Origin: Gammaproteobacteria bacterium
GTDB taxonomy: Bacteria > Pseudomonadota > Gammaproteobacteria > Eutrophobiales > Eutrophobiaceae
Reading direction: 5' to 3'
Assembly: GCA_947480335.1 (NCBI GenBank)
Contig: CANKCB010000006.1
Span: 13,148 to 77,147 of the forward strand
DNA length: 64,000 nt
The notes below the pieces were generated by a model. That model saw only the letters and a program-made list of their open reading frames with translations, made no database searches and had not been told where the DNA came from. The position numbers and the translations under genes are program-made. Within the stretch, counting starts at the first letter, position 1. The number at the start of each line of letters is the position of its first letter. This document shows positions 23,254 through 63,913 of the stretch, one piece after another.

Positions 23254-23340
23254 CTAATATTTTTAGTGTTTTTTGATCTCTATTCAGGCACAAATAAAGT
23301 GCAAATTGCTCCAAAATTGCCCTGAATACGGCAAAAATAG

Positions 23341-23356: not shown

Positions 23357-23562
23357 CAAAATAATAGTGTAATAATAACAACAGGTTACAAGACTTCATT
23401 CGTCTGAATAGAGGGAAAAACATGCTGGAAATGCACCAAAATAAGACGTTTTTTAAGCACTACGCCCTGTTTTGGTTCAATTTAATTGATTATTAACGGG
23501 GAATTTAACCCGCTTGCGCTGGCAGGTTTGAAGTACAGTCAGGCCTAAGCTGAACCTGATGT

Positions 23563-23919
<357 letters not shown>

Positions 23920-23961
23920 TCATTTCGAGACTGCTATGCAATATAAGTATAACCCTTACTG

Positions 23962-24000
23962 ATAAAAAATGCAGGGTACACTTGTCAGTGTACCCTGCAT
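23962..24000 (-). terminator. Rho-independent terminator after second amt
   Basis: Perfect 13-bp stem ATGCAGGGTACAC-TTGTCA-GTGTACCCTGCAT. On the minus strand it is followed by TTTTTTAT. Confidence 0.7.
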
Positions 24001-24012
24001 GAATTTGGACTA

Positions 24013-25371
24013 TTACAGATTATAACCGCGCTCGTTATGCATGGAGACGTCCAGACCTTCCGTTTCCTGATCTTCGGTCACTCTTAGACCAATTATCACA
24101 TCAACCACTTTAAGGATGATGACAGTCAGGATACCAGTGTAAATCAGCGTGAATAACACACCTTTACATTGTGTCATTAACTGACCTACTATCGTTACAC
24201 CTTCAGCTAGACCTACACCACCCAGACTGGCATCAGCGCAAAGACCGGTCAGGATTGCACCGATGATACCGCCAACACAGTGCACACCGAATACATCCAG
24301 CGAATCATCATAACCAATGGCCTTCTTCAGCTTTACCGAGGCGAGGAAACAACCCACTCCCGCTGCAGCACCAATGATCAGCGCGCCAATAGGACCGGCT
24401 GTTCCAGATGCCGGTGTAATCGCCACCAGTCCGGCAACCGCACCCGAAGCAATACCAAGTACACTGGGCTTACCGTGCGAAAACCATTCTATCGTCATCC
24501 AGGTCAATGCAGCAGCAGCCGTCGCGATTTGTGTAACGGCCATCGCCATACCAGCAGTACCGTTTGCAGCAACAGCTGAACCGGCGTTGAAACCAAACCA
24601 GCCTACCCACAGCATACCCGCACCGATGATGGTGAAGTTCAGGTTATGCGGCATCATCGGGCTGGTCGGATAACCCTTGCGTTTACCCAGCATGATGGCA
24701 GCAATCAAACCGGCAATACCCGCATTGATGTGTACGACTGTACCACCAGCGAAATCAAGCACGCCCCAGTCCCACAACAGACCACCAGCACCACTCCAGA
24801 CCATATGTGCGATCGGGAAATAAACCAGCGTTACCCAGATACCCATGAACAGTAACATCGCAGAGAACTTCATACGTTCTGCAAAGGCACCGACGATAAG
24901 TGCCGGGGTAATAATCGCGAAGGTCATCTGGAATGTCATAAACACACTTTCCGGAATCGCGTAGGTCAGACTGGCATTAGTCATGCCGTTCAGAAATAAG
25001 CGGCTGGTACCACCGATGAACGAGTTAAAGTTGACCACACCTGACTCCATTCCTGTGACATCAAAGGCCAGACTGTAGCCATAAACCATCCACAGAATCG
25101 AGACCAGACAGGTAATGGCAAAACATTGCATCATTACTGACAGCACGTTTTTGCTTCTCACCATGCCGGCATAAAACAATGACAATCCGGGTATGGTCAT
25201 AAACAGCACCAGAGCAGTTGAAGTCAGCATCCAGGCTGTATCACCTGAATTCAGCACAGCATCTTGCGCCATTACCAGTGTAGGGCTTAACAAAGCAGAT
25301 AATGCCAGCAAGCTTTTGCCCATCCTGGATTTAAATGCATTGGTAAATGCATATTTAATTAAATGTGACAT
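24013..25371 (-). CDS. amtB: Ammonium transporter, second paralogue
   Basis: Amt family. Track ORF 24013..25551 was trimmed to the start MSHLIKY (ATG 25371, GAGG Shine-Dalgarno) followed by a signal peptide. Confidence 0.85.
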   Translation of the reverse strand: MSHLIKYAFTNAFKSRMGKSLLALSALLSPTLVMAQDAVLNSGDTAWMLTSTALVLFMTIPGLSLFYAGMVRSKNVLSVMMQCFAITCLVSILWMVYGYSLAFDVTGMESGVVNFNSFIGGTSRLFLNGMTNASLTYAIPESVFMTFQMTFAIITPALIVGAFAERMKFSAMLLFMGIWVTLVYFPIAHMVWSGAGGLLWDWGVLDFAGGTVVHINAGIAGLIAAIMLGKRKGYPTSPMMPHNLNFTIIGAGMLWVGWFGFNAGSAVAANGTAGMAMAVTQIATAAAALTWMTIEWFSHGKPSVLGIASGAVAGLVAITPASGTAGPIGALIIGAAAGVGCFLASVKLKKAIGYDDSLDVFGVHCVGGIIGAILTGLCADASLGGVGLAEGVTIVGQLMTQCKGVLFTLIYTGILTVIILKVVDVIIGLRVTEDQETEGLDVSMHNERGYNL

Positions 25372-25393
25372 AGTTATATTCCTCAATGCCTGA

Positions 25394-25732
<339 letters not shown>

Positions 25733-25800
25733 TTAAAATTCCTCCAGGTTTGGTTATTGCCCTGACCGACCCATGTCAATCAGGGCTTTTGATTACTATC

Positions 25801-26523
25801 TCAGAAACTTCCTGATACTGAGAAAACAACCGCTGTGTCACACAGATTGGTACCACTGAAACAATCCTTTTCTTTCAAATCAGTATCAGATGCTTTTATC
25901 GCAAAAGTGTAAGGACCGAGCACCTTGCTCAGGCTGACATTGTATTCAAGCCAGTCAGGGGTGCCCCAGGCGGCTTCATCTTTTACGCTCTGCTGACCAA
26001 TATGGAAGCCCAGACTGAAATCACTTGGCAGAGTAAAGCCCAAGTCACTGTATACCCACCAACCTGCACCGCTATTGAACGAGAAGTCGTCAGCATACAT
26101 AAAGCCGGCACCCAGTTTCGGAGCCAGATCCCCACCAAAGGTATAGCTCAAACTTGGACCTACTTCCCAATAATCTACGCCAACGCCATCACCACTCGAT
26201 GGATATTCATAATAAGTACCGAGTAATTTCCAGGCTAAACCACCATCCGTTTCACCGGCCAGGCCACCGTAATAATCGATTTCCAGTCCACCACCGAAAT
26301 TAATGTTGGATGCCCAGGTGCCGAGGAACAAACCGCTTTCATGTGCAAAATCAAAACCTCCTTGAATGGTCGGGTTATTGTCTGTCTGCGACTGGCCTCT
26401 GAATAAATAATCCGATGCCAGGGTCACATTGCCCGTGAACGAATAAGGTGAGTCCTGTGCGGACACAATTGCAGGAACCATCAGAACTACAGCTGAAAGG
26501 ATCAGGCTAAACAACTTTTTCAT
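25801..26523 (-). CDS. TorF-family putative outer-membrane porin (Gcw_chp/TIGR02001-like), copy 1
   Basis: Signal peptide. Conserved start SPYSFTGNVTLASDYLFRGQSQTDNNP and C-terminal Phe typical of this beta-barrel family. Confidence 0.65.
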   Translation of the reverse strand: MKKLFSLILSAVVLMVPAIVSAQDSPYSFTGNVTLASDYLFRGQSQTDNNPTIQGGFDFAHESGLFLGTWASNINFGGGLEIDYYGGLAGETDGGLAWKLLGTYYEYPSSGDGVGVDYWEVGPSLSYTFGGDLAPKLGAGFMYADDFSFNSGAGWWVYSDLGFTLPSDFSLGFHIGQQSVKDEAAWGTPDWLEYNVSLSKVLGPYTFAIKASDTDLKEKDCFSGTNLCDTAVVFSVSGSF

Positions 26524-26574
26524 GACTCTCTATCTCCATTGTTGATTGTATTGGTACTACTACGCTGAGAGATT

Positions 26575-26590
26575 GCATTAAGCGTGCCAT
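26575..26590 (-). promoter_or_regulatory. Sigma54 (-24/-12) promoter for porin copy 1
   Basis: The minus strand reads TGGCACGCTTAATGCA versus consensus TGGCACG-N4-TTGCA (one mismatch). About 50 nt upstream of the start at 26523. Confidence 0.55.
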
Positions 26591-26673
26591 TAATATTTTT
26601 ATTATTAATAACAATTAGATAGGGAATTAATTTGGTTGTAATATTTCAGAAAATCTTCTGGAAACACTGATAA

Positions 26674-26690
26674 CGCACCATAGTGATGCT
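26674..26690. promoter_or_regulatory. NtrC-like enhancer half-palindrome upstream of the porin sigma54 promoter
   Basis: cGCACCatagtGaTGCt versus TGCACC-N5-GGTGCA (14/17). About 100 bp upstream of the -24/-12 element. Confidence 0.35.
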
Positions 26691-26772
26691 CTAATTTACC
26701 GCGACGCACAAACATAGTGCCATGTTGGACGAAACAGTGTTTGTTTTATACAAAACATCCACTTTGACAAAT

Positions 26773-26806
26773 AAAAAAGCCCCGACCAATTTGCATCGAT
26801 CGGGGC
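26773..26806 (-). terminator. Rho-independent terminator after porin copy 2
   Basis: GCCCCGA...TCGGGGC hairpin. On the minus strand it is followed by TTTTTTATTTG. Confidence 0.6.
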
Positions 26807-26849
26807 TGATTGGTCAGATTACTGACCAGACTAAGTTTTACAGGATCTG

Positions 26850-27572
26850 TTAGAAACTACCAGATATTGATAAAATTACAGTCGTATCACAGGTATTGGC
26901 ACCACCAAAACACTCGGAAGGTTTCAAGTCAGTATCTGAAACCTTGATTCCCAAGTTATACGGACCAATTGCCTTGGTCAAACTGGCATTGTATTCCAGC
27001 CAATCCGGGGTACCCCAGGTTGCTTCATCCTGAATAGACTGCTGTCCAAGGTGGAAGCCCAGGCTGAAATCAGCTGGTAAGGTAAAGCCCAAATCACTGT
27101 ATACAAACCAACCTTCACCACTGTTATAGGAGAAGTCGTCGGCATACATGAAGCCGGCGCCCAGTGTTGGGGCCAATTCACCACCAAAGGTATAGGTCAG
27201 ACTTGGACCTGCTTCCCAGTAATCAGCGCCTACACCATCACCACTGGAAGGATACTGATAGTAGATACCATTCAGATCCCAAGACAGCCCATCAACTAAC
27301 TCACCGGTCATACCACCGTAGTAGTCAATTTCCAGACCACCAGCAAAATTGATATTGGATGCCCAGGTACCCAGATACAGGCCAGACTCATGAGAATAGT
27401 CAAAACCACCCTGAATTGTCGGGTTATTATCGGTCTGTGACTGGCCTCTGAACAGGTAATCGGACGCCAGGGTCACATTGCCAGTGAAACTGTATGGTGA
27501 GTCCTGCGCAATGGATGCAAGCGGTATGGCTGCAATGACTAATGTAGCTACTATCTTGGATAATTTATTCAT
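26850..27572 (-). CDS. TorF-family putative outer-membrane porin, copy 2 (tandem paralogue, ~75-80% aa identity to copy 1)
   Basis: Same length (240 aa) and motifs as copy 1. Confidence 0.65.
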   Translation of the reverse strand: MNKLSKIVATLVIAAIPLASIAQDSPYSFTGNVTLASDYLFRGQSQTDNNPTIQGGFDYSHESGLYLGTWASNINFAGGLEIDYYGGMTGELVDGLSWDLNGIYYQYPSSGDGVGADYWEAGPSLTYTFGGELAPTLGAGFMYADDFSYNSGEGWFVYSDLGFTLPADFSLGFHLGQQSIQDEATWGTPDWLEYNASLTKAIGPYNLGIKVSDTDLKPSECFGGANTCDTTVILSISGSF

Positions 27573-33316: not shown

Positions 33317-33433
33317 GCTTTCAGGAGTATACTTTTCCCTATAGCTACTTATGGAATCATTGCTCTGACTTCGTTTACTGAAACTGCCATCGTCTCCTTT
33401 ACCACGTTCTTCGCAACGGTTGCACCGCTGGAC

Positions 33434-34009
33434 GTGGCAGCGATGTTTGCCGCCCTCACGCCAAACGCCACGCTCGAAGCAAAACGGTCAATGGCATTTC
33501 GTGGCACGTTCATCAGCGCTATCATCCTGTTGTGCTTTGCAATGGTCGGTGATGCTGCGCTTGCAACTCTGGGCATATCATTGGCGGCATTTAAAGTCTC
33601 GGGTGGCATTCTATTATTACTGATTGGTATTGAGATGGTGTTTGCCCGCAGCTCCGGCGGCACCTCGACCACGCAGGAAGAAGATGACGAAGCCATTATG
33701 CGGCCCGATATCGCCGTCTTCCCGCTCGCCACACCGTTGATCGCCGGCCCCGGAACAATGGGTGCCACCGTGCTATTAATGGCCGATGTAAAAGGCGACC
33801 TGTTGGGTGAAGCCGTTGTTATCGTTGCGCTGTTACTGGTATTACTGTTAACACTGATCCTGTTATTGCTAACATCCCGCGTACAAAAACTGTTCGGCGT
33901 CACCGCGATGTATGTGATCAGCCGCGTGTTCGGCGTATTGTTGTCTGCACTCGCTGTGCAATTCATGTTTGACGGACTGGCACAAAGCGGCCTGCTGGGA
34001 AATCTGTAA
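33434..34009 (+). CDS. marC: MarC-family (UPF0056) integral membrane protein; N-terminus probably longer (possible frameshift near 33366)
   Basis: Multi-TM protein with MarC-like motifs. The in-frame region is open back to 33317 without a canonical start. ATG 33351 (MESLL*) would fuse in-frame with a 1-nt insertion, giving MESLLLTSFTETAIVSF.... Confidence 0.6.
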   Translation: MAAMFAALTPNATLEAKRSMAFRGTFISAIILLCFAMVGDAALATLGISLAAFKVSGGILLLLIGIEMVFARSSGGTSTTQEEDDEAIMRPDIAVFPLATPLIAGPGTMGATVLLMADVKGDLLGEAVVIVALLLVLLLTLILLLLTSRVQKLFGVTAMYVISRVFGVLLSALAVQFMFDGLAQSGLLGNL

Positions 34010-34285
34010 ACACAGCCTCGTTGCAGCACAACAAATTGCTTAGGCTGTCGAATAGATAAAGCTGGATAGAGGCGTACTGTTTTAATTCACCCCGATTCGT
34101 CGTATGCTGCTATCAACTCAGTGATTTCAGGACTATCGAATGGTTAACCTGGACTACCCCAAACTTCCCTACACCGCCTTTGCACGGTTATCCAGTTATT
34201 TGTTAGATATCCGTGCATCTCATGCACACTATATAAGAAAAATAACTTGCATCATCCCTGTCACGTTAATACATAGTTATGCCTC

Positions 34286-34777
34286 ATGAGAATCACCCTT
34301 GATCACAACTGCATCATCCATATTGAGAATGGCACAGACGTTGGAAATGCTGTTCAGGTCATCGTTTCGAGTGTGAATAATGAATGTTTCGTTGTGAACA
34401 TTGGTGCTTCTGAAATGCGCAAATATGGCGTACGGCCTGACAAGTACGAAAAATTCGAAGAGCTCTTGAGCCAAACTGGTCTCGCACATTTGCCAAGACT
34501 CAATCCAATGATGATTTTTGATGTTACCTTTTGGGATCGGTGTGTTTGGGGAGGCGACGACACTATAAAACTCGCGAGCAATATCGAAGAGGTATTATTT
34601 GGTGAGTCAGAAAAGATCGATATTGCTTCAGTTGGTCTTGATTCAGCCGAGGGTAGAAAATGGTTAAATAGGATCTGCGATATCCACGGCATGTGGTGCC
34701 ACATTAAAATAAAAATGATATTTTCCTCACCACAGATGGTAATTTCAGCAAAGAGACTAAGTTACCAAAACTTTTAG
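34286..34777 (+). CDS. Hypothetical protein (possible PIN-like N-terminus ITLDHNCII); islet gene
   Basis: 163 aa, no confident family. Weak resemblance to VapC N-terminal hh-D-x-N motif and downstream acidic residues. Low GC. Confidence 0.4.
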   Translation: MRITLDHNCIIHIENGTDVGNAVQVIVSSVNNECFVVNIGASEMRKYGVRPDKYEKFEELLSQTGLAHLPRLNPMMIFDVTFWDRCVWGGDDTIKLASNIEEVLFGESEKIDIASVGLDSAEGRKWLNRICDIHGMWCHIKIKMIFSSPQMVISAKRLSYQNF

Positions 34778-34895
34778 CATTGGTGTCTCGCCGCATCTGT
34801 CATCCACAGGAGCTTTTACATGAGGCATAACAAGGCACCCAAATCGGACGGCTTCGCCGCCGCTTGGCTTGGTCGTTAGCAAAAATCAAAAACCT

Positions 34896-35321
34896 ATGAA
34901 TATTCAATATAGAAATACATTTGAAGAAGTTGATTGGAATCAAGTATCTAAAATATTTGAGGTAAATGGATGGGGCGCAAGACCTCCTGAGAAAGTTAAG
35001 GCTGCATTTCAAAAAAGTTCTTTCATGCGCTTTGCGTATATTGAAGGCCAACTGGTTGGTATGGGCAGAACTATTGATGACGGCGTCTACTATGCTTGGG
35101 TGGTCGATCTAGCTATATTGCCAGAGTTTCAAGGCCTTGGTATTGGCTCTACTATTCTTAAAGAACTCGAAAAAGATCTAGAGCCTTTTATAAGTACAAT
35201 GTTAACGGCAGCACCTGGCAAAAGTGGGTTTTATGAGAAACTTGGCTGGATTAAACAATCTGCTGCATACATCTGGCCGCGTTCAGAAAAGCAAAAACGT
35301 GAATTTACTGACAATTGCTAA
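34896..35321 (+). CDS. GNAT-family N-acetyltransferase
   Basis: Acetyl-CoA binding motif ...VVDLAILPEFQGLGIGSTILKELE.... Start taken at MNIQYRN. Confidence 0.7.
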   Translation: MNIQYRNTFEEVDWNQVSKIFEVNGWGARPPEKVKAAFQKSSFMRFAYIEGQLVGMGRTIDDGVYYAWVVDLAILPEFQGLGIGSTILKELEKDLEPFISTMLTAAPGKSGFYEKLGWIKQSAAYIWPRSEKQKREFTDNC

Positions 35322-35917: not shown

Positions 35918-36367
35918 ATGTCTGAACCCGCCAGGCCCATAAGCAAATCGACCCTGACTGCGTGGGTAAATGAAAAGATCCGAAACGGAACGCCTCGGTG
36001 TGTCTTGTATCACATACTAATTTCAATGCAATCCGAAACCAACGACCTGAAAGAGATGCAAATATTAGCGGCCGTTGCTGATGAACAAGAAGAAATAATG
36101 GTTGATAGGAATACGAAAGGAATGGCGCTCGAAAAGCAAGGAAAGGAAGATAGCGCGATCGTTCTCTACGAAGCCAATGTCGCAGATCAATTCGATGGAA
36201 GCCATCCATACAATCGATTGCGCATACTTTACATGGATCGCGGGAGCTACATCGACACCATCCGGGTGTGTGAGGCATACATTGCAAATTCCAGTCAGGA
36301 TCAGAAGTTGTGTGAATCGTTCCGTACCGAGATTACGAAACTTACGGCAAAGGCTTCCGGTTCTTGA
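35918..36367 (+). CDS. Hypothetical protein, predicted alpha-helical/TPR-like
   Basis: 149 aa. Central region GMALEKQGKEDSAIVLYEANVADQFDGSHPYNRLRILYMDRGSYIDTIRVCEAYI has a TPR-like periodicity. No known family. Confidence 0.4.
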   Translation: MSEPARPISKSTLTAWVNEKIRNGTPRCVLYHILISMQSETNDLKEMQILAAVADEQEEIMVDRNTKGMALEKQGKEDSAIVLYEANVADQFDGSHPYNRLRILYMDRGSYIDTIRVCEAYIANSSQDQKLCESFRTEITKLTAKASGS

Positions 36368-36472: not shown

Positions 36473-37330
36473 ATGATCGAACAGAGATCGAAATATAGAA
36501 GTACCATCACTATGTCCGAGCTTGGACGGCGGGCTAGTGAAATTCGTGAGCTTTATGAGGGGGAAGGCATACGGCTTCACTCGCAGTCTGGCATGGCCGA
36601 GCTTATTAATGGCGCCATGGAGTTGGCGTCTAATAGTGGGCCTCATGGAACGGAGGGTAACATCTATCTTGGGCTGCATTTAGACAGAGTATATAAAGCT
36701 GTGGTTCCCTTAAAACAGCATCCGAATAGAAGTGAGTATCTAAAAAAACTTCGTGCTGGCAATCTTCGGTTCCTGAACAGAACTCCGTCAAAAGCCAGAG
36801 ATTGTCTTTTTGAACTGGAGATATGGCGATCTATAAACGATCTAAGAAAGAATGCCGGGAGCCTTTCCGAGCCTGACGTAGTTCTTGACCTTCCTTCCCT
36901 GAAAATCGGAATTGCTTGTAAAAAAATTTATTCAACCCATAATGTTGAAAAGACACTTTCAAATGCCGTTAAGCAAATCAGATCGAATTGCCAAGGCTTT
37001 GGCGTTGTCGCCTTCAGTATTGAAGATATCTTTCCAGAAGGGAAAGCTGTTGGGGCAAAGACCTTTGACGGTGCGTCAGATTTCCTTTCACGTCAATGTC
37101 AAAATTTCTTGGCAGAACATGAGAAATTGTTCATCAAGTATTTCAAGGGAAGCGATATCGTCGGAGCCTTAGCTGTCGCATCAAGCATTGTTGAAACTAC
37201 TCAAGAGCGTCTGCGCTATTCAAATATGCAGCAGTGGTTCCTATGGTCCGCCCCTGAGCTCAACAAAAATGCTCAGATATCTGTGATTCACTTTAGAAAC
37301 CTACTTGGAAAAAATGCGTCCGAAAAATAA
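36473..37330 (+). CDS. Hypothetical protein (285 aa) with possible PD-(D/E)xK-like motifs; candidate effector of an uncharacterised module
   Basis: No recognisable family. Motif order E (FELEIW), PD (EPDVVLDL) and xK (GIACKK) is weakly reminiscent of a restriction-endonuclease fold. Alternative start MSELG at 36512. Confidence 0.4.
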   Translation: MIEQRSKYRSTITMSELGRRASEIRELYEGEGIRLHSQSGMAELINGAMELASNSGPHGTEGNIYLGLHLDRVYKAVVPLKQHPNRSEYLKKLRAGNLRFLNRTPSKARDCLFELEIWRSINDLRKNAGSLSEPDVVLDLPSLKIGIACKKIYSTHNVEKTLSNAVKQIRSNCQGFGVVAFSIEDIFPEGKAVGAKTFDGASDFLSRQCQNFLAEHEKLFIKYFKGSDIVGALAVASSIVETTQERLRYSNMQQWFLWSAPELNKNAQISVIHFRNLLGKNASEK

Positions 37331-38410: not shown

Positions 38411-38806
38411 ATGAATCTACACATACGCAGACTGATGCTACTCTCGCTGCTGCTTGTTCCATTCTCGCTTAATGCCGCCGAGAGTGTGGATAGCCGCATT
38501 GCCGGTAAATACGCAGGTCAGGTCTATAACGGTGATGATATGGATCCTGTCGTCACGGTGTTTGTCGCATTACCGAACGGCAGGATACGCGGAAATTACG
38601 TCGCGGAAGATGAGGTTGAAACCGTCAACGGCACCATCTCAAACGCGGTCAAGATTGAAGGCAACACCTATTCGTTTGAGTGGACGGATAAATACGGCGA
38701 AGGCAAGGCGGTGCTGGTGTTTTCCAGTGACTTTTCCAGCTTCAAGGGATTCTGGACGAATAATATTGAACGCAATCAGTTTGAATGGACAGGAACACGG
38801 TTATGA
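38411..38806 (+). CDS. Secreted hypothetical protein
   Basis: 131 aa with an N-terminal signal peptide (LLLVPFSLNAAE). No family recognised. Confidence 0.45.
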   Translation: MNLHIRRLMLLSLLLVPFSLNAAESVDSRIAGKYAGQVYNGDDMDPVVTVFVALPNGRIRGNYVAEDEVETVNGTISNAVKIEGNTYSFEWTDKYGEGKAVLVFSSDFSSFKGFWTNNIERNQFEWTGTRL

Positions 38807-39357
38807 CCATAAAAAGCTCTTCGACGATAGTCTGCTTATCACTACTCTTGCTATTAAGTTCCAGCGTACGCGTGGCACTGGCGCAGGACAGGGATCTGGA
38901 TGATTTCGAGGACCTCGGACGCAACGTGGCTGACGCCATCGCATCCGATACGCAGTTTGATATTACCAAACTCGGTAATTACAAAAATCTGAGGCTGGCA
39001 CTGTTAAAACAGGCCTGTCAGTATATTGACTATGGCTACTACCGGATTAAAGATGTGGTTTACATGATCGGTAGCAGTAAACAGGGTGTGGTCATCGGTC
39101 GCCATGCGAAATTCAATGTGATCAAAAACGAAGCGAACATTGAGTCTGTTACTGCCTCGGCTGAGGACTGTCTCGTGATTCCAAACCATCCTTCATCACT
39201 GGGCATCACGGTGACCGAGAAACAGTCCGAGACGCCTACCGAGTTTCATGTGATAACCAATCTGGTCAACGGCAAGGCTTTGTATGTCGGCACGACCAAG
39301 GGTAACTGGCGCGTGGTTGAAGGCAGGATTTCACTGTTGGAAACACATCGACTTTAA
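38803..39357 (+). CDS. Secreted hypothetical protein
   Basis: Start MTIKSSS, which overlaps the upstream stop (ATGA). Signal peptide ...VALAQD. No family recognised. Confidence 0.45.
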   Translation: MTIKSSSTIVCLSLLLLLSSSVRVALAQDRDLDDFEDLGRNVADAIASDTQFDITKLGNYKNLRLALLKQACQYIDYGYYRIKDVVYMIGSSKQGVVIGRHAKFNVIKNEANIESVTASAEDCLVIPNHPSSLGITVTEKQSETPTEFHVITNLVNGKALYVGTTKGNWRVVEGRISLLETHRL

Positions 39358-43895: not shown

Positions 43896-45698
43896 ATGAC
43901 AAAGCATAAAAAATTACAGGATTGGGTCAACCAGATGACGGCACTCTGCCAGCCCGCACAGGTGGTCTGGTGTGACGGCAGTGAGCGCGAATACAGCGCG
44001 ATGTGGGACATCCTGATCAAATCCGGAACCGCCAAAAAACTGAACGAAAGCAAACGTCCCAACAGCTATCTGGTCCGCTCTGATCCGAACGATGTGGCCA
44101 GAGTAGAAGACCGTACTTTTATCTGCTCACAGAAGAAGGAAGATGCTGGCCCGACCAATAACTGGATGGACCCGGCGCAAATGCGCACCACGCTGAATGG
44201 CCTGTTCAAGGGCTGTATGCAGGGACGCACCATGTATGTGATTCCGTTCAGCATGGGTCCGATAGGCTCTCCGATTGCCCATATCGGTGTAGAGCTGACT
44301 GATTCTCCCTATGTCGTGACCAATATGCACATCATGGCCCGTGTGGGTCAGGCCGTGCTCGATTTTCTGGGTACAGACGGTGAGTTTGTCCCCTGTATGC
44401 ATTCCACCGGTATGCCGCTGACAGCAGGCACGAAGGACGTCGCCTGGCCATGTAACCCGGCCAATACCTACATCGTGCATTATCCTGAAACCCGCGAAAT
44501 CTGGTCGTTCGGTTCCGGTTATGGTGGCAATGCGTTGCTCGGCAAGAAATGTCTGGCACTGCGTATCGCTTCTGTCATGGCCAGAGATCAGGGTTGGCTG
44601 GCTGAACACATGCTGATTCTGAAAATTACCAATCCGCAGGGCAAGGTCCGTTATATCGCCGGCGCGTTCCCAAGTGCCTGCGGCAAAACTAATCTGGCAA
44701 TGCTGACACCGTCCATTCCCGGCTGGAAAGTGGAAACGGTCGGTGATGATATTTGCTGGATGAAGTTCGGTGCTGATGGCCAGCTGTATGCGATCAATCC
44801 GGAAGCCGGATTCTTTGGCGTGGCTCCGGGTACCAGCCTGGATTCAAACGCGAATGCGATCAAGACACTGTACGCAAATTGCATCTTCACCAACGTGGCA
44901 GAAACCGACGATGGCGATGTGTGGTGGGAAGACATGAGCAAGGAACCGCCTGCGCATTTGATCGACTGGAAAGGCAAGGACTGGACACCGGCTTCCGGCA
45001 CGCCAGCCGCCCATCCTAACGCCCGCTTCACCGTGGCAGCACGTCAATGCCCGGTAGTAGCCAGCGAATGGGAAGATTTAAAAGGCGTGCCTATCAGCGC
45101 CATCCTGTTTGGTGGACGTCGTGCCACCGTGGTGCCACTGGTCAATGAAGCACGTGACTGGTTACAGGGCACGTTCTTCGGTTCGATTGTGTCTTCCGAA
45201 AAAACGGCTGCGGCAACCGGCAAGATCGGTGAATTGCGCCGTGACCCGATGGCAATGTTGCCCTTCTGCGGCTACAACATGGCCTCGTACTGGCAACACT
45301 GGATCAACATTGGCAAAAAACAGGGTGCACGTTTGCCCAGAGTGTTTTATGTCAACTGGTTCCGCAAGAACGATGCGGGCAAATTCATGTGGCCCGGCTT
45401 TGGCGACAACAGCCGAGTACTGAAATGGGTATTTGAACGATGCGAAGGAACCGGAGCGGCAGTAGAAACACCGATTGGTATGTTGCCGACAATGGACGCG
45501 CTGGACTTTTCTGGTCTGAATCTGGACAAAGCGGCTATCGCCTTGTTGCTACGGGTTGAAGTAGACGGTTGGTTACAGGAAATCCCGATGATCCGTGAAT
45601 ACTACAAATCGTTCGGAGATCGTATGCCGGCTGAACTGATGAGTGAACTGGATCAGCTTGAATCCAAACTGCGCGCTGCCAAACCCGCCGCAGCCTAG
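43896..45698 (+). CDS. pckG: Phosphoenolpyruvate carboxykinase (GTP)
   Basis: 600 aa. GTP-PEPCK motifs (kinase-1a [12 protein letters not shown]-loop region) and typical N-terminus. Confidence 0.9.
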
Positions 45699-45794: not shown

Positions 45795-47438
45795 CTACGA
45801 TCTATTTCCGTTTACCTTTCGATACAGGCTGATTAATGCCTCGGTAGACGCATCAAACCGGTCAGCGTAGTCATCTTCGGTCAGGCGGCTGTAGATTCGG
45901 TTGCCGATGACCTTGCCCAGTTCAACGCCGTATTGATCAAACGCATTGATGTTCCAGATCACGCTTTGCACGTAGACCTTGTGTTCATATAGCGCAATCA
46001 GCGCACCGAGCGATTCAGGCGTGACTTGTTCCATCACGATCATATTGCTAGGGCGATTACCGGGCATCTGCATATGCTCGGCCAGTTCAGCGGCCCTGGC
46101 CAGCTTCTGGCCCGCAACAATTAAATCTGCCTGGGCCTGCTCGCGGGTTTTACCGGTCATCAATACGTTCGATTGAGCCAGACAATTGGCGACCAGATAC
46201 GGATGGTGGCTGTCATTCGCCGAATCCGGTGTCAGCGCCAGAATAAAATCGGTCGGGATAAATTGTGTCCCCTGATGCAACATCTGGTGAAACGAATGCT
46301 GACCGTTGGTTTCTACCGTTCCCCACAATACGCTTGCCGTCTGGTAATCCACCGGACGGTTGTCGATACGAATCGATTTGCCGTTGCTTTCCATGTCCAG
46401 CTGTTGCAGGAATTCCTGCAGGTAACGCAGATGATGTATATACGTCAAGACAGCCAGCGTACGGGTGTCCCAGAAATTGATATACCAGATTCCGAGCAGT
46501 CCCAGTAATACTGGCAAGTTTTGCAAAAACGGAGTGGTCAAAAAATGCTGATCCATTCTCGACGCGCCACGACGCAAGCGGTTGAAGTTGTCCATACCAA
46601 TACTGAACGCAATCGGCAGACCAATCGCTGACCAGAGCGAATAACGACCCCCGACCCAGTCCCACATCGGCAGGATGTTCTGCCGTGACACACCGAATTT
46701 TACCGCCTTGTCCGGACGCGACGTGACCGCGATAAAATGACGACCAAAATCCGCTTCCGTTTTGGCAATGCTGGCAGTCCACTCTCTGGCCGTTTTCGCA
46801 TTCTGCAGTGTTTCCTGCGTCGTGAAAGATTTCGAGGCGATGATGAATAATGTCGTGTCCGGCAACAATGCGCTGAGCACGCTGGACAAGTCTTCACTGT
46901 CAATATTGGAAACGAAATGACAGTTTACGGAACCATCATTAAATGCAGCCAGCGCCTCGGTGGCGAACATGGGCCCCAGATGTGAACCACCAATACCCAG
47001 ATTGACAATATCGGTGATCGCCTTGCCGGTACATCCTTTCCACTCACCGGAATGGACCTGCTCTACCAGTGATTTCATCTGCGCCATCACAGCTTCGATT
47101 TCTGCCAGATGGGGTGAACGCCCGGTAAAATCCCGCAAGGCTGTATGCAGTGCCGGACGGTCTTCCGTCGTGTTGACATGCGCACCGCTAAACAATGCCG
47201 CGATTTTGTCCTGCAGCCCGCTGCTTCTGGCTGCACCAGTCAACAGATCCAGCGTTGTAGAATTGATCAGGTTTTTGGAATAATCCAGCGTCAGTCCTGC
47301 GGCACTCGCGTGCATACGGGCATAGCGATCTGTATCTTGCGCAAACAGCTCGGATAGACTGGTCTGTTGTAACAGATCGCGCTGTCTGGCCAGTTCCTGC
47401 CAGATGGCAGAATCGTTTGGTTTAAACGGATTACTCAT
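45795..47438 (-). CDS. pgi: Glucose-6-phosphate isomerase
   Basis: 547 aa with PGI family signatures (..GGRYSLWSAIG..). Confidence 0.9.
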   Translation of the reverse strand: MSNPFKPNDSAIWQELARQRDLLQQTSLSELFAQDTDRYARMHASAAGLTLDYSKNLINSTTLDLLTGAARSSGLQDKIAALFSGAHVNTTEDRPALHTALRDFTGRSPHLAEIEAVMAQMKSLVEQVHSGEWKGCTGKAITDIVNLGIGGSHLGPMFATEALAAFNDGSVNCHFVSNIDSEDLSSVLSALLPDTTLFIIASKSFTTQETLQNAKTAREWTASIAKTEADFGRHFIAVTSRPDKAVKFGVSRQNILPMWDWVGGRYSLWSAIGLPIAFSIGMDNFNRLRRGASRMDQHFLTTPFLQNLPVLLGLLGIWYINFWDTRTLAVLTYIHHLRYLQEFLQQLDMESNGKSIRIDNRPVDYQTASVLWGTVETNGQHSFHQMLHQGTQFIPTDFILALTPDSANDSHHPYLVANCLAQSNVLMTGKTREQAQADLIVAGQKLARAAELAEHMQMPGNRPSNMIVMEQVTPESLGALIALYEHKVYVQSVIWNINAFDQYGVELGKVIGNRIYSRLTEDDYADRFDASTEALISLYRKVNGNRS

Positions 47439-51934: not shown

Positions 51935-51963
51935 CCGGGACGGACTTATGTCCGTCCCGGTTT
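51935..51963. terminator. Bidirectional terminator between ssb and MFS gene
   Basis: Perfect 11-bp stem CCGGGACGGAC-TTAT-GTCCGTCCCGG followed by TTTT. Confidence 0.65.
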
Positions 51964-53268
51964 TCTGAGCAAGTCTGAAAACCTCTGCATATACTCCGGG
52001 AATTTTATAAAAATTATGCTTGTAATAATCAGATTGAGCACGCCGAGGACCAGATAAATCTGCGGTATGGTCAATGCCAGTTTAATCAGCACGATTACCA
52101 GCAGTGCAGATGCCACCATAAATATCGCATTAAGTATATTGTTCGCGGCAATGATACGTGCCTGATACTCCGGACTGGATCGATGCTGCACCATTGCATA
52201 TAACGGCACAATATAAATACCGCCAAAAAAACCGATTGCTGTCAGTGCAAACAGAATACGCCAGTGCACAAAATAGGTGAGAAACTCGGACGCTCCCATT
52301 GCGACAGCGCCCTGATGCACGTGCGGCGTTCCAGTGATAAACAAATCGATGGCAAACAGGGTGAGTCCCAATGCACCTATCGGCACCAGACCTGGCTCAA
52401 TGCCTCCTTTCGATAATCGTTCACACAACAGTGACCCTGCACCTATACCAAGAGAGAATGCAGTCAGCAAGATAGTAGCCACCCGTTCATCCCCCATCAG
52501 CACATCACGGGTGTAGGTTGGCACCAGCGACAGATAGGTTGCGCCCAGAAACCAGAACCAGGAAACCGCAATGATGGCGATAAACACATTTTTGTCCGCG
52601 CAGGAATAACGAAGGATATGCCAGGTCTGTCTGGCCATATTCCAGTCTATTCGTATGCAGTCATCGGAAGCCGGTGCCAAGGGAATATACCAGCTGGCAA
52701 TCCAGGCAGCAGCAGCAACCGTCACAGCGAGTAATGAAACCAGATAGATACCATACCCATCAATTGCGACCAGCATGCCACCAATAATGGTACCGATCAG
52801 GATAGCGAGAAACGTACCCATCTGAATCATCCCGTTGCCCCCGGTTAACTCCTCCACACGCAAATGCTGCGGCAGTATCGCGTATTTGAGCGGTCCGAAA
52901 AAGGCCGACTGGATTCCAGTGAGAAACAGTACTGTCATTAATATGACCACACTCTGTGAAATGAACCCGGTTAACGCGAACGCCATGATCATCACTTCGG
53001 AAAAGGTAATCCGGCGGATCAAGTACGACTTCTCGTATTTATCCGCCACCTGTCCTGCTGTCGCGGAAACCAGAAAGTACGGCAGGATAAATACACCGCC
53101 GGACAGGGCAACCAGAATACTGCTGTTAACAGCCAGTGTGTCGGAGAGTGTAAAGGTAATAAAGATTATGAGCGCATTTTTGAAAATATTGTCTTCCATG
53201 GCGCCCAGAAACTGCACACAGAAAAGTGGCAGAAACCGCCTGCTCTTCATCAAGGTATATTGGCTCAT
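51946..53268 (-). CDS. MFS transporter (LplT-like lysophospholipid transporter family)
   Basis: 440 aa with 12 TM helices. The N-terminal region RFLPLFCVQFLGAMEDNIFKNAL resembles LplT. Confidence 0.6.
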   Translation of the reverse strand: MSQYTLMKSRRFLPLFCVQFLGAMEDNIFKNALIIFITFTLSDTLAVNSSILVALSGGVFILPYFLVSATAGQVADKYEKSYLIRRITFSEVMIMAFALTGFISQSVVILMTVLFLTGIQSAFFGPLKYAILPQHLRVEELTGGNGMIQMGTFLAILIGTIIGGMLVAIDGYGIYLVSLLAVTVAAAAWIASWYIPLAPASDDCIRIDWNMARQTWHILRYSCADKNVFIAIIAVSWFWFLGATYLSLVPTYTRDVLMGDERVATILLTAFSLGIGAGSLLCERLSKGGIEPGLVPIGALGLTLFAIDLFITGTPHVHQGAVAMGASEFLTYFVHWRILFALTAIGFFGGIYIVPLYAMVQHRSSPEYQARIIAANNILNAIFMVASALLVIVLIKLALTIPQIYLVLGVLNLIITSIIFIKFPEYMQRFSDLLRKPGRT

Positions 53269-53343
53269 GGACTTGTCAATTCTTTAATGCCATATTGATC
53301 GGTATAGCCATTTCATCAGGTCATTGGTTCGGGAGAAATCAAT

Positions 53344-53875
53344 ATGCCGATTGTGTCACAAATCAACCTGTTAAAGAAACGTCGTACCAAAATTGTGGCC
53401 ACACTGGGGCCGGCTTCATCAACACCGGAAATCATCACACAACTGGTGCTATCCGGCGTCAATGTGTTTCGTCTGAATATGTCACACGGCGACCATGATT
53501 TTCATCGCAAAAGTTACAAGCATATCCGTTCGATAGCTGAAACTACCGGCCTGCCAATCGCTATACTCGCCGATTTATGCGGCCAGTTGCTGTGCCCAGT
53601 TTACCGCACTGCTAGGCGGGCCTGAAATCGACGTGCCGGCTGGCTATAACCAGATTGTGTACGAACCAAAATATCCGCTTAGCAAGGACAAGAAGCGGTA
53701 TATCACCGTTACCGGCACTGAAAAATCCATGCTGCCAGTACCCATGCCTGTCAGCATGATGATCTGGAGTGGACCGGGTTCTGATGCTGACGTAATCAAG
53801 ATTGGTTCTGCTTATGAGGCGGCCACCAAACATCGTATACCGCCACCGGACTTCGGACCACTGGCAACAGAATAA
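53344..53875 (+). pseudogene. pyk: Pyruvate kinase remnant (N-terminal ~75 aa intact, then frameshift and unrelated sequence)
   Basis: RRTKIVATLGPASSTPEIITQLVLSGVNVFRLNMSHGDHDFHRKSYKHIRSIAETTGLPIAILADL matches the Pyk N-terminus. The next frame gives GGPEI... and then shows no Pyk similarity. Total coding potential is under 180 aa versus about 480 expected. Confidence 0.6.
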
Positions 53876-53884
53876 TCGATAGGT

Positions 53885-53925
53885 ATCTCCCCATCAGGGA
53901 CATCCTTGATGGGGAGATTTATAAT
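53885..53925 (+). terminator. Rho-independent terminator downstream of pyk remnant
   Basis: 12-bp stem ATCTCCCCATCA / TGATGGGGAGAT with a 9-nt loop, followed by TTTATAAT. Confidence 0.55.
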
Positions 53926-54044
53926 AGGGGACTTCAAGGGGTCAGAGAACTTGATGTGTGGAATAAATAAATTGCCCTGCGAGCGTTCATGTCAAACTGG
54001 ATTCCCGCCCTCGCGGTAATGATGCCTTGAAGAAAAGTGCTGTA

Positions 54045-54074
54045 TCTCCTCACTCCTTACCCCTCACCTTAACC
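54045..54074. repeat. Member of the same C/T-rich repeat family
   Basis: TCTCCTCACTCCTTACCCCTCACCTTAACC at the 3' end of the DUF934 gene. Shares CTCACTCCT and TTACCCCTC with the other copies. Confidence 0.45.
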
Positions 54075-54552
54075 TATACACCGGCAAGGCGCCATCCGCG
54101 GCAGTCTGATATTTGACAGTAAAGTCATTGAAAGCCTTCAATGCATCTTCGATATCCTTGTCCTTGCGGATAAAGAACGAATTGAAACCACAGCGCTTCA
54201 TATAGAACAACTGATCCCGCAAGACATCACCAACCGCGCGCAGGTCGCCTTTAAATCCATAACGGTCACGCAACAATCTTGCATGACTATAACAACGTCC
54301 GTCCTTGAAGGCGGGGAAATCGAGAGCAATCAGGTTGAACTTGCCAATATGAGTGGCGATATCTTCAATCTTGTCTTCACCATTCAGGCATACCGCAAGC
54401 TTGCCGCGATGATTCGCCAGCTTGTCCTGGTTTTGTTGCCAGTATTTAAATGGCAGAATCAAGTCACCGTCTGGAATTGGCTGATCCGCTGTTACGGTAT
54501 CCACTCTGGTCCAGCTATCTTCAAGAATCTGATTATCCTTAATCACGCGCAT
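54064..54552 (-). CDS. DUF934-domain protein (sulfite-reductase-associated)
   Basis: 162 aa and conserved DUF934 architecture. Sits immediately downstream of the nitrite/sulfite reductase gene, as in many proteobacteria. Confidence 0.65.
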   Translation of the reverse strand: MRVIKDNQILEDSWTRVDTVTADQPIPDGDLILPFKYWQQNQDKLANHRGKLAVCLNGEDKIEDIATHIGKFNLIALDFPAFKDGRCYSHARLLRDRYGFKGDLRAVGDVLRDQLFYMKRCGFNSFFIRKDKDIEDALKAFNDFTVKYQTAADGALPVYRLR

Positions 54553-54554
54553 GG

Positions 54555-56231
54555 CTATTCTCCTTCTGCCTGTGCAACACTGCCGTTATAGATCCGTTGT
54601 TTGAACGGTTCTATTCCGATACGTCGGTAGGTATCGAGAAAGCGCTCATCTTCATGACGCTTTTCAACATAGACATCCAGTAACTTGCCGATGGTATCAG
54701 CGACTTCCTTCTGGGCTATGGCTGGCCCCAGACGATCACCCAGAGCCGCATCCTCGGCAGGCGAACCGCCGAGCGTTAACTGGTAAAACTCCTCGCCTTT
54801 CTTGTCTACACCCAGTATACCGATATGGCCAACATGGTGATGACCACAGGCATTCATACAACCGGACATCTTGATCTGGATATCACCAATATCATGCAGA
54901 TAATCCATATCATTAAACTTGCTGTTGATCTGGTTGGCTATCGGAATTGAACCTGCATTTGCCAGTGAACAAAAATCCAGTCCCGGGCAACAAATCATGT
55001 CTGTCAGTAATCCGATATTCGGTGTAGCCAGATTCTGTGTTTTCAGCGCGGTCCACAAGGCATATAAGTCTCCCTGTTTAACATGGGCAAACACCAGATT
55101 CTGATCGTGGGTGGCGCGAATTTCACTGGCGCTATATTTATCTGCCAGATCCGCAATAAATTCCATCTGAGTATCGGTCACATCGCCCGGGGGAATACCC
55201 GGCATCTTCAGTGAAATATACACCCCCCGGTAACCGGCCACCTTGTGTGGTTTGACATTGCGTTTGACCCAGTTGGCAAAGCCGGTATCTGTGGACAGTT
55301 TTTGTCCAAAGCTGGTATCGGCTGCGGCCTTACTGTCATAGGGTGGATCCAGAAAATATTTTTTCACCCGGTCAATTTCTTTCTGATCCAGCAACAATAC
55401 AGAATCTCTAATCTGCAGCCATTCCTGCTCGACCATTTCAGCAAATTTTTCCGGCCCAATCGCTTTTACCAGTATCTTGATACGCGCCTTGTGGATATTG
55501 TCACGTCGTCCGAACAGGTTATAGACACGCAGTATCGCTTCCAGATAGGACAACAGATACTTTTTCTCCAGAAACTCCTTGATGAAAGCGCCGATGTACG
55601 GCAAGCGACCCAGACCGCCCCCGACAAGAATACGAAAACCGACTTCACCCTGATCATTTTTTACTACGTAAATACCGATATCGTGTACCTGCACAGCAGC
55701 CCGATCTTTTACTGCACCGGAGACAGCAATCTTGAACTTACGCGGCAAATAGGAGAATTCCGGGTGGAAAGTCGACCATTGACGAATAATTTCACAATAG
55801 GATCTGGGATCTTCAATTTCATCTTCGGCCACCCCGGCAAAATGATCGGAGGTGATATTGCGTATGCAGTTGCCACTGGTCTGGATGGCGTGCATTTCAA
55901 CACTGGCCAGATCCGCGAGGATATCCGGCACCGTTTCCAGTCTCGGCCAGTTGTACTGGATATTCTGGCGGGTACTGAAATGACCATAACCCTTGTCATA
56001 TTTACGGGCAATATGGCCCAGCATGCGCAACTGGTCAGACGACAACAGTCCGTAGGGTATCGACACCCTCAGCATGGGAGCATAACGCTGGATATAAAGA
56101 CCATTCATCAGGCGTAAGGGCCTGAATTCGTCTTCAGATAACTCTCCGGTCAGAAAGCGACGGGTCTGGTCACGAAACTGCTCTACCCTTTCGTTTACGA
56201 TAGTTCTGTCATATTCGTCGTATATATACAT
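54555..56231 (-). CDS. Assimilatory nitrite/sulfite reductase hemoprotein (ferredoxin/CysI-like, siroheme-[4Fe-4S])
   Basis: 558 aa. Cysteine cluster CPGLDFC...SGCMNACGHHH typical of the siroheme-4Fe4S site, and NiR/SiR ferredoxin-like half domains. Confidence 0.8.
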   Translation of the reverse strand: MYIYDEYDRTIVNERVEQFRDQTRRFLTGELSEDEFRPLRLMNGLYIQRYAPMLRVSIPYGLLSSDQLRMLGHIARKYDKGYGHFSTRQNIQYNWPRLETVPDILADLASVEMHAIQTSGNCIRNITSDHFAGVAEDEIEDPRSYCEIIRQWSTFHPEFSYLPRKFKIAVSGAVKDRAAVQVHDIGIYVVKNDQGEVGFRILVGGGLGRLPYIGAFIKEFLEKKYLLSYLEAILRVYNLFGRRDNIHKARIKILVKAIGPEKFAEMVEQEWLQIRDSVLLLDQKEIDRVKKYFLDPPYDSKAAADTSFGQKLSTDTGFANWVKRNVKPHKVAGYRGVYISLKMPGIPPGDVTDTQMEFIADLADKYSASEIRATHDQNLVFAHVKQGDLYALWTALKTQNLATPNIGLLTDMICCPGLDFCSLANAGSIPIANQINSKFNDMDYLHDIGDIQIKMSGCMNACGHHHVGHIGILGVDKKGEEFYQLTLGGSPAEDAALGDRLGPAIAQKEVADTIGKLLDVYVEKRHEDERFLDTYRRIGIEPFKQRIYNGSVAQAEGE

Positions 56232-56443
56232 CGTTGCTCTTTACGGATTCCGTATGTGGTGAATTTCAGGGCTGCAAAAGATAACAATAATTTGATATTC
56301 ATCAAAGTAATATATCTTGCTAAGAATATAACAATATTGCGGAAATCAGGATTTCAGTCCATTCCGGCAGGAATTTAGAGGAAAACGGTCTGAAATCCGG
56401 GTGATTCAGAACCGCCAATACAGCCGTACTACGCTATTAAAGT

Positions 56444-62121: not shown

Positions 62122-62928
62122 ATGAAAAAACTGAAAGCAATTATTTTCGATATGGACGGCACCCTTGCGGATACCGAGGAAATCCATCGCCAGTCGTTTA
62201 ATACGGCATTCAGTGAATTCGGTATAGCTTGTCATTGGGACCAGCATGAATATAAACAGTTGCTTGCCATATCCGGTGGACGTGAACGCTTGACCCAATA
62301 CCTGCAAATTCATACTCACCTCGGGGTACGTCCCGAAGCCTTGACAGAGATCGTCGACAAACTGCATAAACGTAAATCGGCGATATACAGACAAAATCTG
62401 ATCAACGGTCATGTCGGACTGCGTCCAGGCGTACGTCGGTTAATTGACGATGCCAAAAGTCAGGGTGTCAATCTGGCGATCGCGACCAGCTCTTCTTCCA
62501 GAAATGTCGATACGCTGTTAAAAGTGGTATTGGGTGAAAATGCACTGGATCTGTTCAGTGCAATTGTTACCAGCGACGAGGTCGATGAGAAGAAACCATC
62601 CCCTGCGGTTTATCTTTATGCACTCGAAACGCTTGGACTGGAGGCTGAAAACTGCGTTGCCCTGGAAGATACCTGCAATGGCAATCTCGCTGCCTTGACC
62701 GCCGGGCTTAGAACAATTGTAACTACCCATTTCTTTACGGCAGACGATGATTTCAGTGGCGCATCGCTGATTGTCAATCATCTCGGCGACCCCGGCAATC
62801 TGCCAATAATGACTCCTGCCACTGTCTTTGGACAGCAGTATGTTGATGTCAGCCTGCTCGAACGAATACTTGATCAGGAACCCGTGATTATTCAACCCGT
62901 AAAGACAGAAACGATTATTGTCGTTTAG
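62122..62928 (+). CDS. cbbY: HAD-superfamily hydrolase, CbbY-like (subfamily IA)
   Basis: MKKLKAIIFDMDGTLADTEEIHRQSFNTAF... is a DxDGT motif I. Overall pattern resembles CbbY of autotrophs. Confidence 0.6.
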   Translation: MKKLKAIIFDMDGTLADTEEIHRQSFNTAFSEFGIACHWDQHEYKQLLAISGGRERLTQYLQIHTHLGVRPEALTEIVDKLHKRKSAIYRQNLINGHVGLRPGVRRLIDDAKSQGVNLAIATSSSSRNVDTLLKVVLGENALDLFSAIVTSDEVDEKKPSPAVYLYALETLGLEAENCVALEDTCNGNLAALTAGLRTIVTTHFFTADDDFSGASLIVNHLGDPGNLPIMTPATVFGQQYVDVSLLERILDQEPVIIQPVKTETIIVV

Positions 62929-62998
62929 AAAGCCGGCATAGCCGTACTCTATTACTTTGGTGCTATAATCAGGCCATCATTTTCAGAATATTGAATCC

Positions 62999-63913
62999 AT
63001 GACGCTGACAGAACTACGCTATATTGTCGCCGTGGCCCGCGAACTGCATTTTGGTCGTGCGGCTACAGCCTGTTTTGTCAGTCAGCCTACGCTCAGTGTG
63101 GCCATCAAGAAACTGGAAGATGAACTGGGCATCGCCCTGTTTGAACGTCACAAACATGATGTCACTGTCACTCCAGTCGGGGAAAAAATAGTCGAGCAGG
63201 CCCAGCGTGTACTGGAACAGGCGAGAACCATCCGTTTGTTGGCCGAAGAAGGCAAGGATCCACTCAAGGGCAGTCTGAAACTCGGGGCGATCTATACCAT
63301 TGGTCCTTATTTGCTTCCCAAGATCATTCCGTTGTTGCATCAAAGCGCACCGGATTTAACCCTGATTATTGATGAAGATTACACCGCCAATCTTGCCAAT
63401 AAACTCAGTCAGGGTGATCTGGACATGGTCATTGTGTCCACGCCGTTTAACGTACCGGGCATCATTACAGAAGTACTATATAAGGAACCGTTTGTCGTCG
63501 TACTGCCGAAACACCATCCACTGGCACAAAAAAAATCCATCAAGGCAGAAGATCTGACGGACGAAACACTGTTACTACTCAAATCGGGAAACTGTTTCAG
63601 GGATCAGGTGATGGAAGTGTGTCCAGCCTGCCGGACGGATGTATTTACACGTAACAGCATTCAGCAGACACTCGAAGGTAGTTCGATTGAAACCATACGC
63701 CAGATGGTAATGGCAGGCACCGGAATAACCGTGCTTCCGAACAGTTCGGTTAACTACACCAGTAAGGAAAACTCACTGCTGGAGTATCGACCCTTTGCAC
63801 GACCTGTGCCAAAACGTGAAGTTGCACTCGCCTGGCGTGAAAGTTATCCACGTACGAAACTGATTCAGTTAATGATCGATACGATCTCCCGCTGTAAGTT
63901 TCCAGTGCTCTAA
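62999..63913 (+). CDS. oxyR: LysR-family transcriptional regulator, OxyR-like
   Basis: HTH LRYIVAVARELHFGRAATACFVSQPTLSVAIKKLEDELG resembles OxyR. Redox cysteines are present in conserved context (GNCFRDQ...VCPAC). Confidence 0.7.
   Translation: MTLTELRYIVAVARELHFGRAATACFVSQPTLSVAIKKLEDELGIALFERHKHDVTVTPVGEKIVEQAQRVLEQARTIRLLAEEGKDPLKGSLKLGAIYTIGPYLLPKIIPLLHQSAPDLTLIIDEDYTANLANKLSQGDLDMVIVSTPFNVPGIITEVLYKEPFVVVLPKHHPLAQKKSIKAEDLTDETLLLLKSGNCFRDQVMEVCPACRTDVFTRNSIQQTLEGSSIETIRQMVMAGTGITVLPNSSVNYTSKENSLLEYRPFARPVPKREVALAWRESYPRTKLIQLMIDTISRCKFPVL

Follow-up and report, generated by a model that had tools for sequence, protein, structure and literature searches.

A probable deletion scar of a pyruvate kinase gene and an amidase gene in an uncultured gammaproteobacterial clade

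The window analysed here, by which we mean the whole stretch of 64,000 nucleotides, carries at 53344-53875 what is very probably a deletion scar without function, composed of the remnants of two genes, namely the first codons of a pyruvate kinase gene (pyk) and the last codons of a gene for a secreted amidase. As a pseudogene, the scar belongs to a familiar class of features, and it reflects ordinary gene loss, recent and repeated. Judged by its sequence, the pyk copy at this locus is dead, with 80 of 484 codons left, and the alleles found in related populations suggest that pyk was functional until recently and would have been destroyed independently at least three times in the clade, with one further relative (L181) as a possible fourth case.

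Two gene remnants in one scar

The pyk 5′ remnant (53344-53583, + strand) comprises codons 1-80 of a 484-codon gene and retains its start codon, a GGGAGA ribosome-binding site (RBS) 5′ of it and the N-terminal motifs RRTKIVATLGP, NMSHG and ILADLCG, the last of which forms its end. Gene callers see a 93-aa ORF (53344-53625, + strand), which consists of the 80 Pyk codons and 13 out-of-frame codons of amidase DNA, read as QLLCPVYRTARRA, followed by a TGA at 53623-53625. Residues 13-80 of this ORF match the pyruvate kinase barrel family PF00224 in Pfam (profile positions 2-69 of 328, E 8.6e-19), and no Pfam match to the C-terminal alpha/beta domain PF02887 was found in the remnant. A tblastn search with the full-length Pyk of the relative L011 (484 aa) aligned residues 1-80 to 53344-53583 at 66% identity, with nothing past residue 80 and no match elsewhere in the 64-kb window. 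The first-pass annotation had described a truncated Pyk with about 75 intact residues; the truncation is real, as both PF00224 and tblastn confirm, but 80 residues survive, through ILADLCG. Compared with 116 intact Pyks, the remnant differs at 2 of 32 highly conserved columns, both mildly. Among the best 120 full-length Pyk matches, ranked by similarity to L011, none was more than 72.5% identical to the remnant, and the best match in a genome scan with the Pyk fragment was 65% (L011).

Catalysis by pyruvate kinases depends on the arginine of GPKIR and on catalytic and metal-binding residues further along the chain. The break in the remnant falls after ADLCG, directly before PKIR, and the (beta/alpha)8 barrel is incomplete. 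Relative to the 484-aa gammaproteobacterial pyruvate kinases with PF00224 and PF02887 (L011:10001-11455, OZ271833.1; P0172), the remnant occupies the same position, from ssb to DUF934-cysI, and its first 80 residues are 66-72% identical, whereas 84% of the gene is absent, including the barrel from the GPKIR arginine on, the B domain and the entire C-terminal domain. The predicted product cannot be an active kinase.

The remainder of the scar (53585-53875, + strand) lies in the +1 frame relative to pyk and represents the last 96-97 codons and the stop codon of a 767-codon gene for a secreted amidase-signature protein. The translation from about 53582 to the stop at 53873-53875 runs (A)ASCCAQFTALLGGPEIDVPAGYNQ...KHRIPPPDFGPLATE; the same +1-frame reading (about 53582-53875) is also given as AASCCAQFTALLGGPEIDVPAGYNQ...PPPDFGPLATE before the stop. 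Its 22 protein matches (E down to 4e-51) all share the block ..CC.QFTALLGGPEIDVPAGYN.., and they include several JGI-named amidases and one with PF01425. At the DNA level, the tail is 77% identical to the 3′-terminal part of the intact amidase gene of the relative L172 (L172:4450-4733), and 84 of 98 C-terminal residues are identical. When the tail is set against the large signal-peptide subfamily of PF01425, whose full-length members have 760-810 aa (here L172:2445-4748), its last 97 residues are 86% identical, the stop codon is at the same place and a hairpin follows in both, whereas the first ~670 residues, the amidase core, and the gene's own ancestral start codon and RBS are absent. The tail corresponds to L172 residues ~671-767 and lacks the amidase-signature core with its catalytic triad, the family matches of the L172 protein (NCBIfam, Pfam) being at residues ~200-510; Pfam returned no family for an 88-aa translation of the tail. 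An 80-aa ORF in the tail (53633-53872, GTG start at 53633) has no exact record, and no assembly annotates it as a gene. As predicted proteins, neither remnant can be an enzyme.

A metagenome scan with the amidase tail gave 80 loci, none of which had pyk, MFS, DUF934 or cysI nearby, and no ancestor-like contig was among them. The contexts of P0009, P0016, P0020 and P0008 were uninformative, since they are unrelated loci, several from noisy assemblies with a frameshift-split amidase. Metagenomes also contain many ORFs of 146-153 aa that cover the amidase C-terminal region alone (P0003, P0004, P0007, P0008; L010:4601-5050; L092:5438-5878). Those of P0004, P0007, P0008 and L092 share a start methionine (MSYLKMQT...), and the ORF of L010 lies on a 6.3-kb contig, 3′ of two M16 peptidase genes and without an amidase core. 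Such ORFs may be remnants, effects of contig edges or a small protein in its own right.

Downstream of the amidase stop, a hairpin (53885-53918, + strand) with a 15-bp stem and a 4-nt loop is followed by UUAUAAU. Folding of 80 nt gave a minimum free energy of -30.8 kcal/mol (z = -4.1). What had been described as a strong terminator is indeed a strong, G+C-rich stem-loop, but its tail, UUAUAAUAGG, lacks the proper U-tract of a Rho-independent terminator. The consensus terminator scan of the + strand did not report this hairpin, the promoter/terminator scan gave nothing relevant to the locus above shuffle background, and Rfam found no RNA family in 52900-54300. The hairpin is kept in the relatives L175 and L176, whereas the L172 amidase has a different hairpin at the same place, with a proper T run (TTTTT). 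The window hairpin is the structure that trailed the amidase gene.

The locus in relatives and its alleles

Comparison of the locus in relatives, which had been proposed alongside the first reading, located intact pyk at the same position in the more distant relatives L011 and L179/L180, and cut alleles in the closer L172, L175 and L176. L011, a 2.85-Mb Gammaproteobacteria MAG chromosome whose UvrA and CysI are 75% and 76% identical to those of the window, has uvrA, ssb, intact pyk (484 aa), convergent DUF934, cysI and zapE, without an amidase; L179/L180 show the same layout, with an intact Pyk that is 72.5% identical to the remnant. In the window, the DUF934 gene (Pfam E 1.9e-41) and a CysI/NirA-type sulfite reductase gene (together 54064-56231, − strand) are convergent with pyk and form the conserved right-hand anchor of the locus, with 79% DNA identity to L172. 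On the other side, a gene for an LplT-like MFS transporter (51946-53268, − strand; Pfam MFS_1/MFS_3, NCBIfam) is divergent from the pyk remnant; by synteny, it is found in the window clade and L181 and is absent from the L011 and L179 layout. In L181, a more distant relative known from a single JGI contig, ssb and pyk flank this gene, just as they do in the window, and there is no amidase. Its pyk (L181:3984-5410) is nearly full length, with one small frameshifting deletion at codons ~96-105 that adjoins codon 99, where the L172 pyk remnant ends; this lesion may represent a fourth independent event, a fragile site common to both or an error in sequencing.

In L172, L173 and L174 (GCA_947498955.1 and two other assemblies) the order is MFS, a pyk remnant with 99 codons that resemble Pyk, a 767-aa amidase gene that is intact and has its own RBS and a signal-peptide sequence, DUF934 and cysI. 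As expected of deletion remnants, both parts of the scar have intact syntenic orthologues, pyk in L011 and L179/L180 and the amidase in L172-L174; no genome was found with both intact, the state predicted for the common ancestor. The most promising lead to such a genome is the 548-nt contig behind P0024, which is 83% identical and reads through GPKIR. By blastn, the window aligns to L172 in three blocks (52051-53528 to 770-2218; 53577-53860 to 4450-4733, 77% identity; 54068-56300 to 4866-7101, 79% identity), which indicates that roughly 2.2 kb between them is missing from the window. In L171, of the same species as L172 (98-99.7% identity), the amidase is split into several ORFs (L171:8357-10667 versus L172:2390-4748, where all 767 aa are intact), and the amidase is therefore also decaying or being lost in the L171/L172 lineage.

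At the deletion junction (53579-53585), GGCC(A) at 53581-53585 is assignable to either parent, which corresponds to 0-5 nt of microhomology. On the 5′ side, the window tracks L175 pyk up to ...tatg[c/t]ggcc, and on the 3′ side, it tracks the L172 amidase from ...g[c/g]gagttgctg, i.e. GGC[C/G]AGTTGCTG. A second GGCCA motif lies at 53397-53401, and the 184 nt between the two motifs are lost in the sister strains L176-L178 (GCA_947467065.1 and others), which are otherwise almost base-identical to the window; this loss creates an in-frame 115-aa fusion of Pyk residues 1-19 with the amidase tail, MPIVTQINLLKKRRTKIVA followed directly by SCCAQF... (also present in P0001). In L175 (Logan ERR2681670, one contig), whose flanking proteins are 97-98% identical to those of the window, pyk codons 1-137 run at GGCCA into what is left of the amidase, its final ~55 nt, and the fusion is a 185-aa ORF that passes through the hairpin. 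GGCC(A) is present at 3/3 junctions of the window/L176/L175 group, a pattern that would fit illegitimate recombination at short repeats; we infer the parental sequences at the window and L175 junctions, while the window itself shows the two repeat copies behind the L176 junction. A repeat search of the window found the scar sequence only once, which leaves no IS or repeat explanation. Three independent assemblies with the 93-aa ORF (L003, L005 and L006) break inside the amidase remnant, at window equivalents 53729, 53713 and 53758, 88-133 nt past the ORF stop and not coincident with known junctions; these are probably graph breaks from co-occurring deletion alleles.

The alleles form a series in which L175 holds pyk codons that lie beyond the window and L172 remnants, the window holds amidase codons that are absent from L175, and L172 holds the entire amidase. 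Because the three are mutually underivable, at least three deletions hit pyk independently. On this reading of the alleles, neither pyk codons 1-137 nor the amidase can have been missing from the ancestor that the window, L175 and L172 share.

The order of events that we propose begins with the ancestral layout seen in relatives, that is ssb and a 484-codon pyk, convergent with DUF934 and cysI. In the organism's lineage, the MFS gene would have arrived 5′ of pyk, and the 767-codon secreted amidase gene between pyk and DUF934. A single ~2.2 kb deletion in the window lineage, probably at short GGCC microhomology, would then have taken out pyk from codon 81 to codon 484, the spacer between the genes and the first ~670 codons of the amidase. 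Following this event, the pyk promoter, RBS and 80 codons would run out of frame into the amidase tail and reach a stop 13 codons on, and the amidase tail would retain its stop codon and hairpin without a catalytic core.

Selection, timing and competing explanations

Selection was assessed as dN/dS from Nei-Gojobori counts, with the pyk comparison covering 80 codons only. Between the window and L175, pyk codons 1-80 differ by 6 nonsynonymous and 16 synonymous changes (dN/dS 0.105; binomial p = 3.9e-6 versus neutrality), and the DUF934 control for the same pair gave 0.048. Between the window and L172, dN/dS is 0.19 for the same pyk codons, and 19 of 72 changes in the amidase tail are nonsynonymous (p = 1e-19). 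This signature of purifying selection in both remnants indicates that pyk and the amidase were constrained for most of the time since the lineages split, and in the surviving pyk codons it implies that the losses are recent; alternatively, continuing selection on the N-terminal fragment could keep dN/dS low. Substitutions in conserved columns are R84W in L175, in the GPKIR arginine, and G22R in L172.

The break in pyk had at first been explained by a frameshift after ILADL, with the motif resuming as GGPEI in the +1 frame and the remainder decaying in place. GGPEI does occur 31 nt past ADLCG in that frame and superficially resembles GPKIR, but we find this explanation hardly credible. The +1 frame is the amidase C-terminus, as its 22 matches and its DNA identity of 77% to the end of the intact L172 gene demonstrate, and its sequence, GGPEI included, is conserved in amidases (..CCAQFTALLGGPEIDVPAGYN.. 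in P0002-P0012). Moreover, 290 nt follow the break where about 1,210 nt of pyk are missing, and the true pyk continuation in L175, GPKIWAGKFANGEILL..., is unrelated to the window sequence. Instead of decay in place, the ~2.2 kb deletion would account for the fusion of the amidase's final 97 codons to codon 80 of pyk. Even closer to nil is the chance that a chimeric join or an indel, introduced by assembly or sequencing, conceals a gene that is really intact. The source is apparently a metagenome assembly, and the three contigs mentioned above end in the amidase remnant (window 53713-53758); however, the exact 93-aa product is encoded on 22 contigs from different samples (ENA, NCBI and Logan assemblies), two of which are 249 kb and 113 kb long, and over 370-900 nt spanning the junction six independent assemblies match the window base for base, which together argue that the lesion is not an assembly artefact, and the 5 nt or fewer shared at the junction are too short for a k-mer chimera.

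A single ancestral event, either the amidase insertion or a first deletion, could have truncated pyk before the window, L175 and L172 split, with later deletions widening the gap. This would require fewer inactivations and agrees with the absence of the pyk 3′ end from all alleles, with the L172 pyk remnant abutting the amidase upstream region and with the GGCC(A) at each window/L175/L176 junction. We consider it improbable, because a dead pyk predicts about 75% nonsynonymous changes among the 22 window-L175 differences where 6 were seen, because the window-L172 value of dN/dS is likewise low, and because L175 has codons 100-137, which L172 lacks, so that truncation at codon 99 is not ancestral. 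Very improbable, in turn, is the retention of the remnants as useful new small proteins made from the pyk promoter (the 93-aa product, the 80-aa product from GTG 53633 and the 115-aa fusion). In its favour are a promoter region, RBS and start codon that are intact and identical across strains, the low dN/dS of the pyk fragment, the reading frame restored by the 184-nt deletion and the recurrence of 146-153 aa amidase C-terminal ORFs in metagenomes. Against it, the alleles delete one another's products, with L176 losing 61 of 80 Pyk codons and L175 losing all amidase-tail codons but 18; the 80 residues cover roughly one quarter of a TIM barrel and include neither the catalytic Arg and Lys nor the metal ligands; gene callers pass over the 80-aa ORF in every assembly; and recent inactivation explains the low dN/dS equally well. 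The scar is best read as two dead remnants, whose lack of expression or function we infer indirectly, from alleles that delete each other's ORFs.

It is a tentative and rather unlikely proposition that pyk loss has been adaptive and parallel in this uncultured gammaproteobacterial clade, with at least three recent deletions (the window type, L175 and L172) and maybe L181, the last known from one contig, as is L175. Calling the clade 'freshwater' would be a guess from run accessions and sample codes. If the proposition were true, it would suggest that the clade recently shifted, for instance to growth by gluconeogenesis alone with GTP-PEPCK, where a Pyk without regulation would drain the PEP pool, or else that it gained another PEP-to-pyruvate route, which made pyk loss neutral or advantageous. 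In Bacillus subtilis, unregulated Pyk drains PEP and impairs gluconeogenic growth (PMC11834443), and by analogy PEP drain is a possible selective rationale for pyk loss. Some autotrophs are reported to lack pyk, and Nitrospina gracilis has been proposed to use PPDK instead (PMC8026999). Nothing found ties the window organism to either case.

Genomic surroundings and significance

The first-pass annotation had placed the broken pyk in the setting of an obligate autotroph, and the neighbouring genes give that idea no support. The pckG (43896-45698) and pgi (45795-47438) genes that it named are real. The supposed CbbY-like HAD gene (62122-62928) matches only generic HAD-IA/bPGM-family models, all below the NCBIfam cutoffs, and the LysR gene adjacent to it scores 243 bits as OxyR versus 116 bits as CbbR, which speaks against a cbb context. 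Assimilatory sulfite reduction had also been taken as a sign of lifestyle; in L011 and L179, the sulfite reductase and DUF934 genes have an intact pyk beside them, so the genes nearby are no predictor of pyk loss. No identifiable gene in the window is specific to autotrophy, and the other genes serve housekeeping or nutrient uptake (parC, htpX, apbC, metG, rnfC, lptD-surA-pdxA-rsmA, aroE, amtB, glnK, a TonB siderophore receptor, folA, thyA, lgt, uvrA and ssb).

Several other features of the window deserve mention. A nitrogen-uptake cluster at 21581-27572 (− strand) contains paralogues that are the source of the repeat families D1-D3, namely two amtB genes (21581-22879 and 24013-25551), two confirmed glnK-like P-II genes (22897-23235 and 23563-23901) and two TorF-family porin genes (25801-26523 and 26850-27572), all on the − strand; a further copy of the repeat (25394-25693, 70% identity) probably represents another P-II gene, the third. 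A gene at 20313-21431 (− strand), adjacent to aroE and the amtB cluster, encodes a 372-aa protein with a cyclic-nucleotide-binding domain and a C-terminal rhodanese domain. Between 33349 and 39357, ORFs without a Pfam or NCBIfam family (33349-34029, 34286-34777, 35918-36367, 36473-37330 and 38785-39357) are interrupted only by a GNAT acetyltransferase gene (34869-35321), and this run may be an island of unknown genes. The HAD-IA hydrolase gene is followed, within 62122-63913, by the OxyR-like LysR gene, whose 243 bits compare with an OxyR cutoff of 329 bits.

Taken alone, the scar is chiefly a matter of annotation. Metabolic reconstructions of these MAGs should not assume a functional pyk on the strength of the 93-aa 'pyruvate kinase' ORF, and the 'motif' in the +1 frame should not be taken for Pyk. 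The population genetics are more interesting, in that four alleles of one locus record successive independent deletions that hit a central glycolytic gene and a recently acquired amidase gene, and short GGCC(A) motifs mark the junctions. If the genome has no other pyk or PPDK, the clade would be a natural example of very recent and repeated rewiring of the PEP-pyruvate node.

The scar can be compared with known deletion pseudogenes and with lineage-specific absence of pyk, as in Nitrospina gracilis (PMC8026999). Unlike in autotrophs without pyk, no link to autotrophy has been shown for the window clade. As in the known cases, a free-living environmental bacterium has lost a gene central to glycolysis and kept a remnant at the ancestral locus; what sets the window clade apart is that several independent deletion alleles occur in closely related populations.
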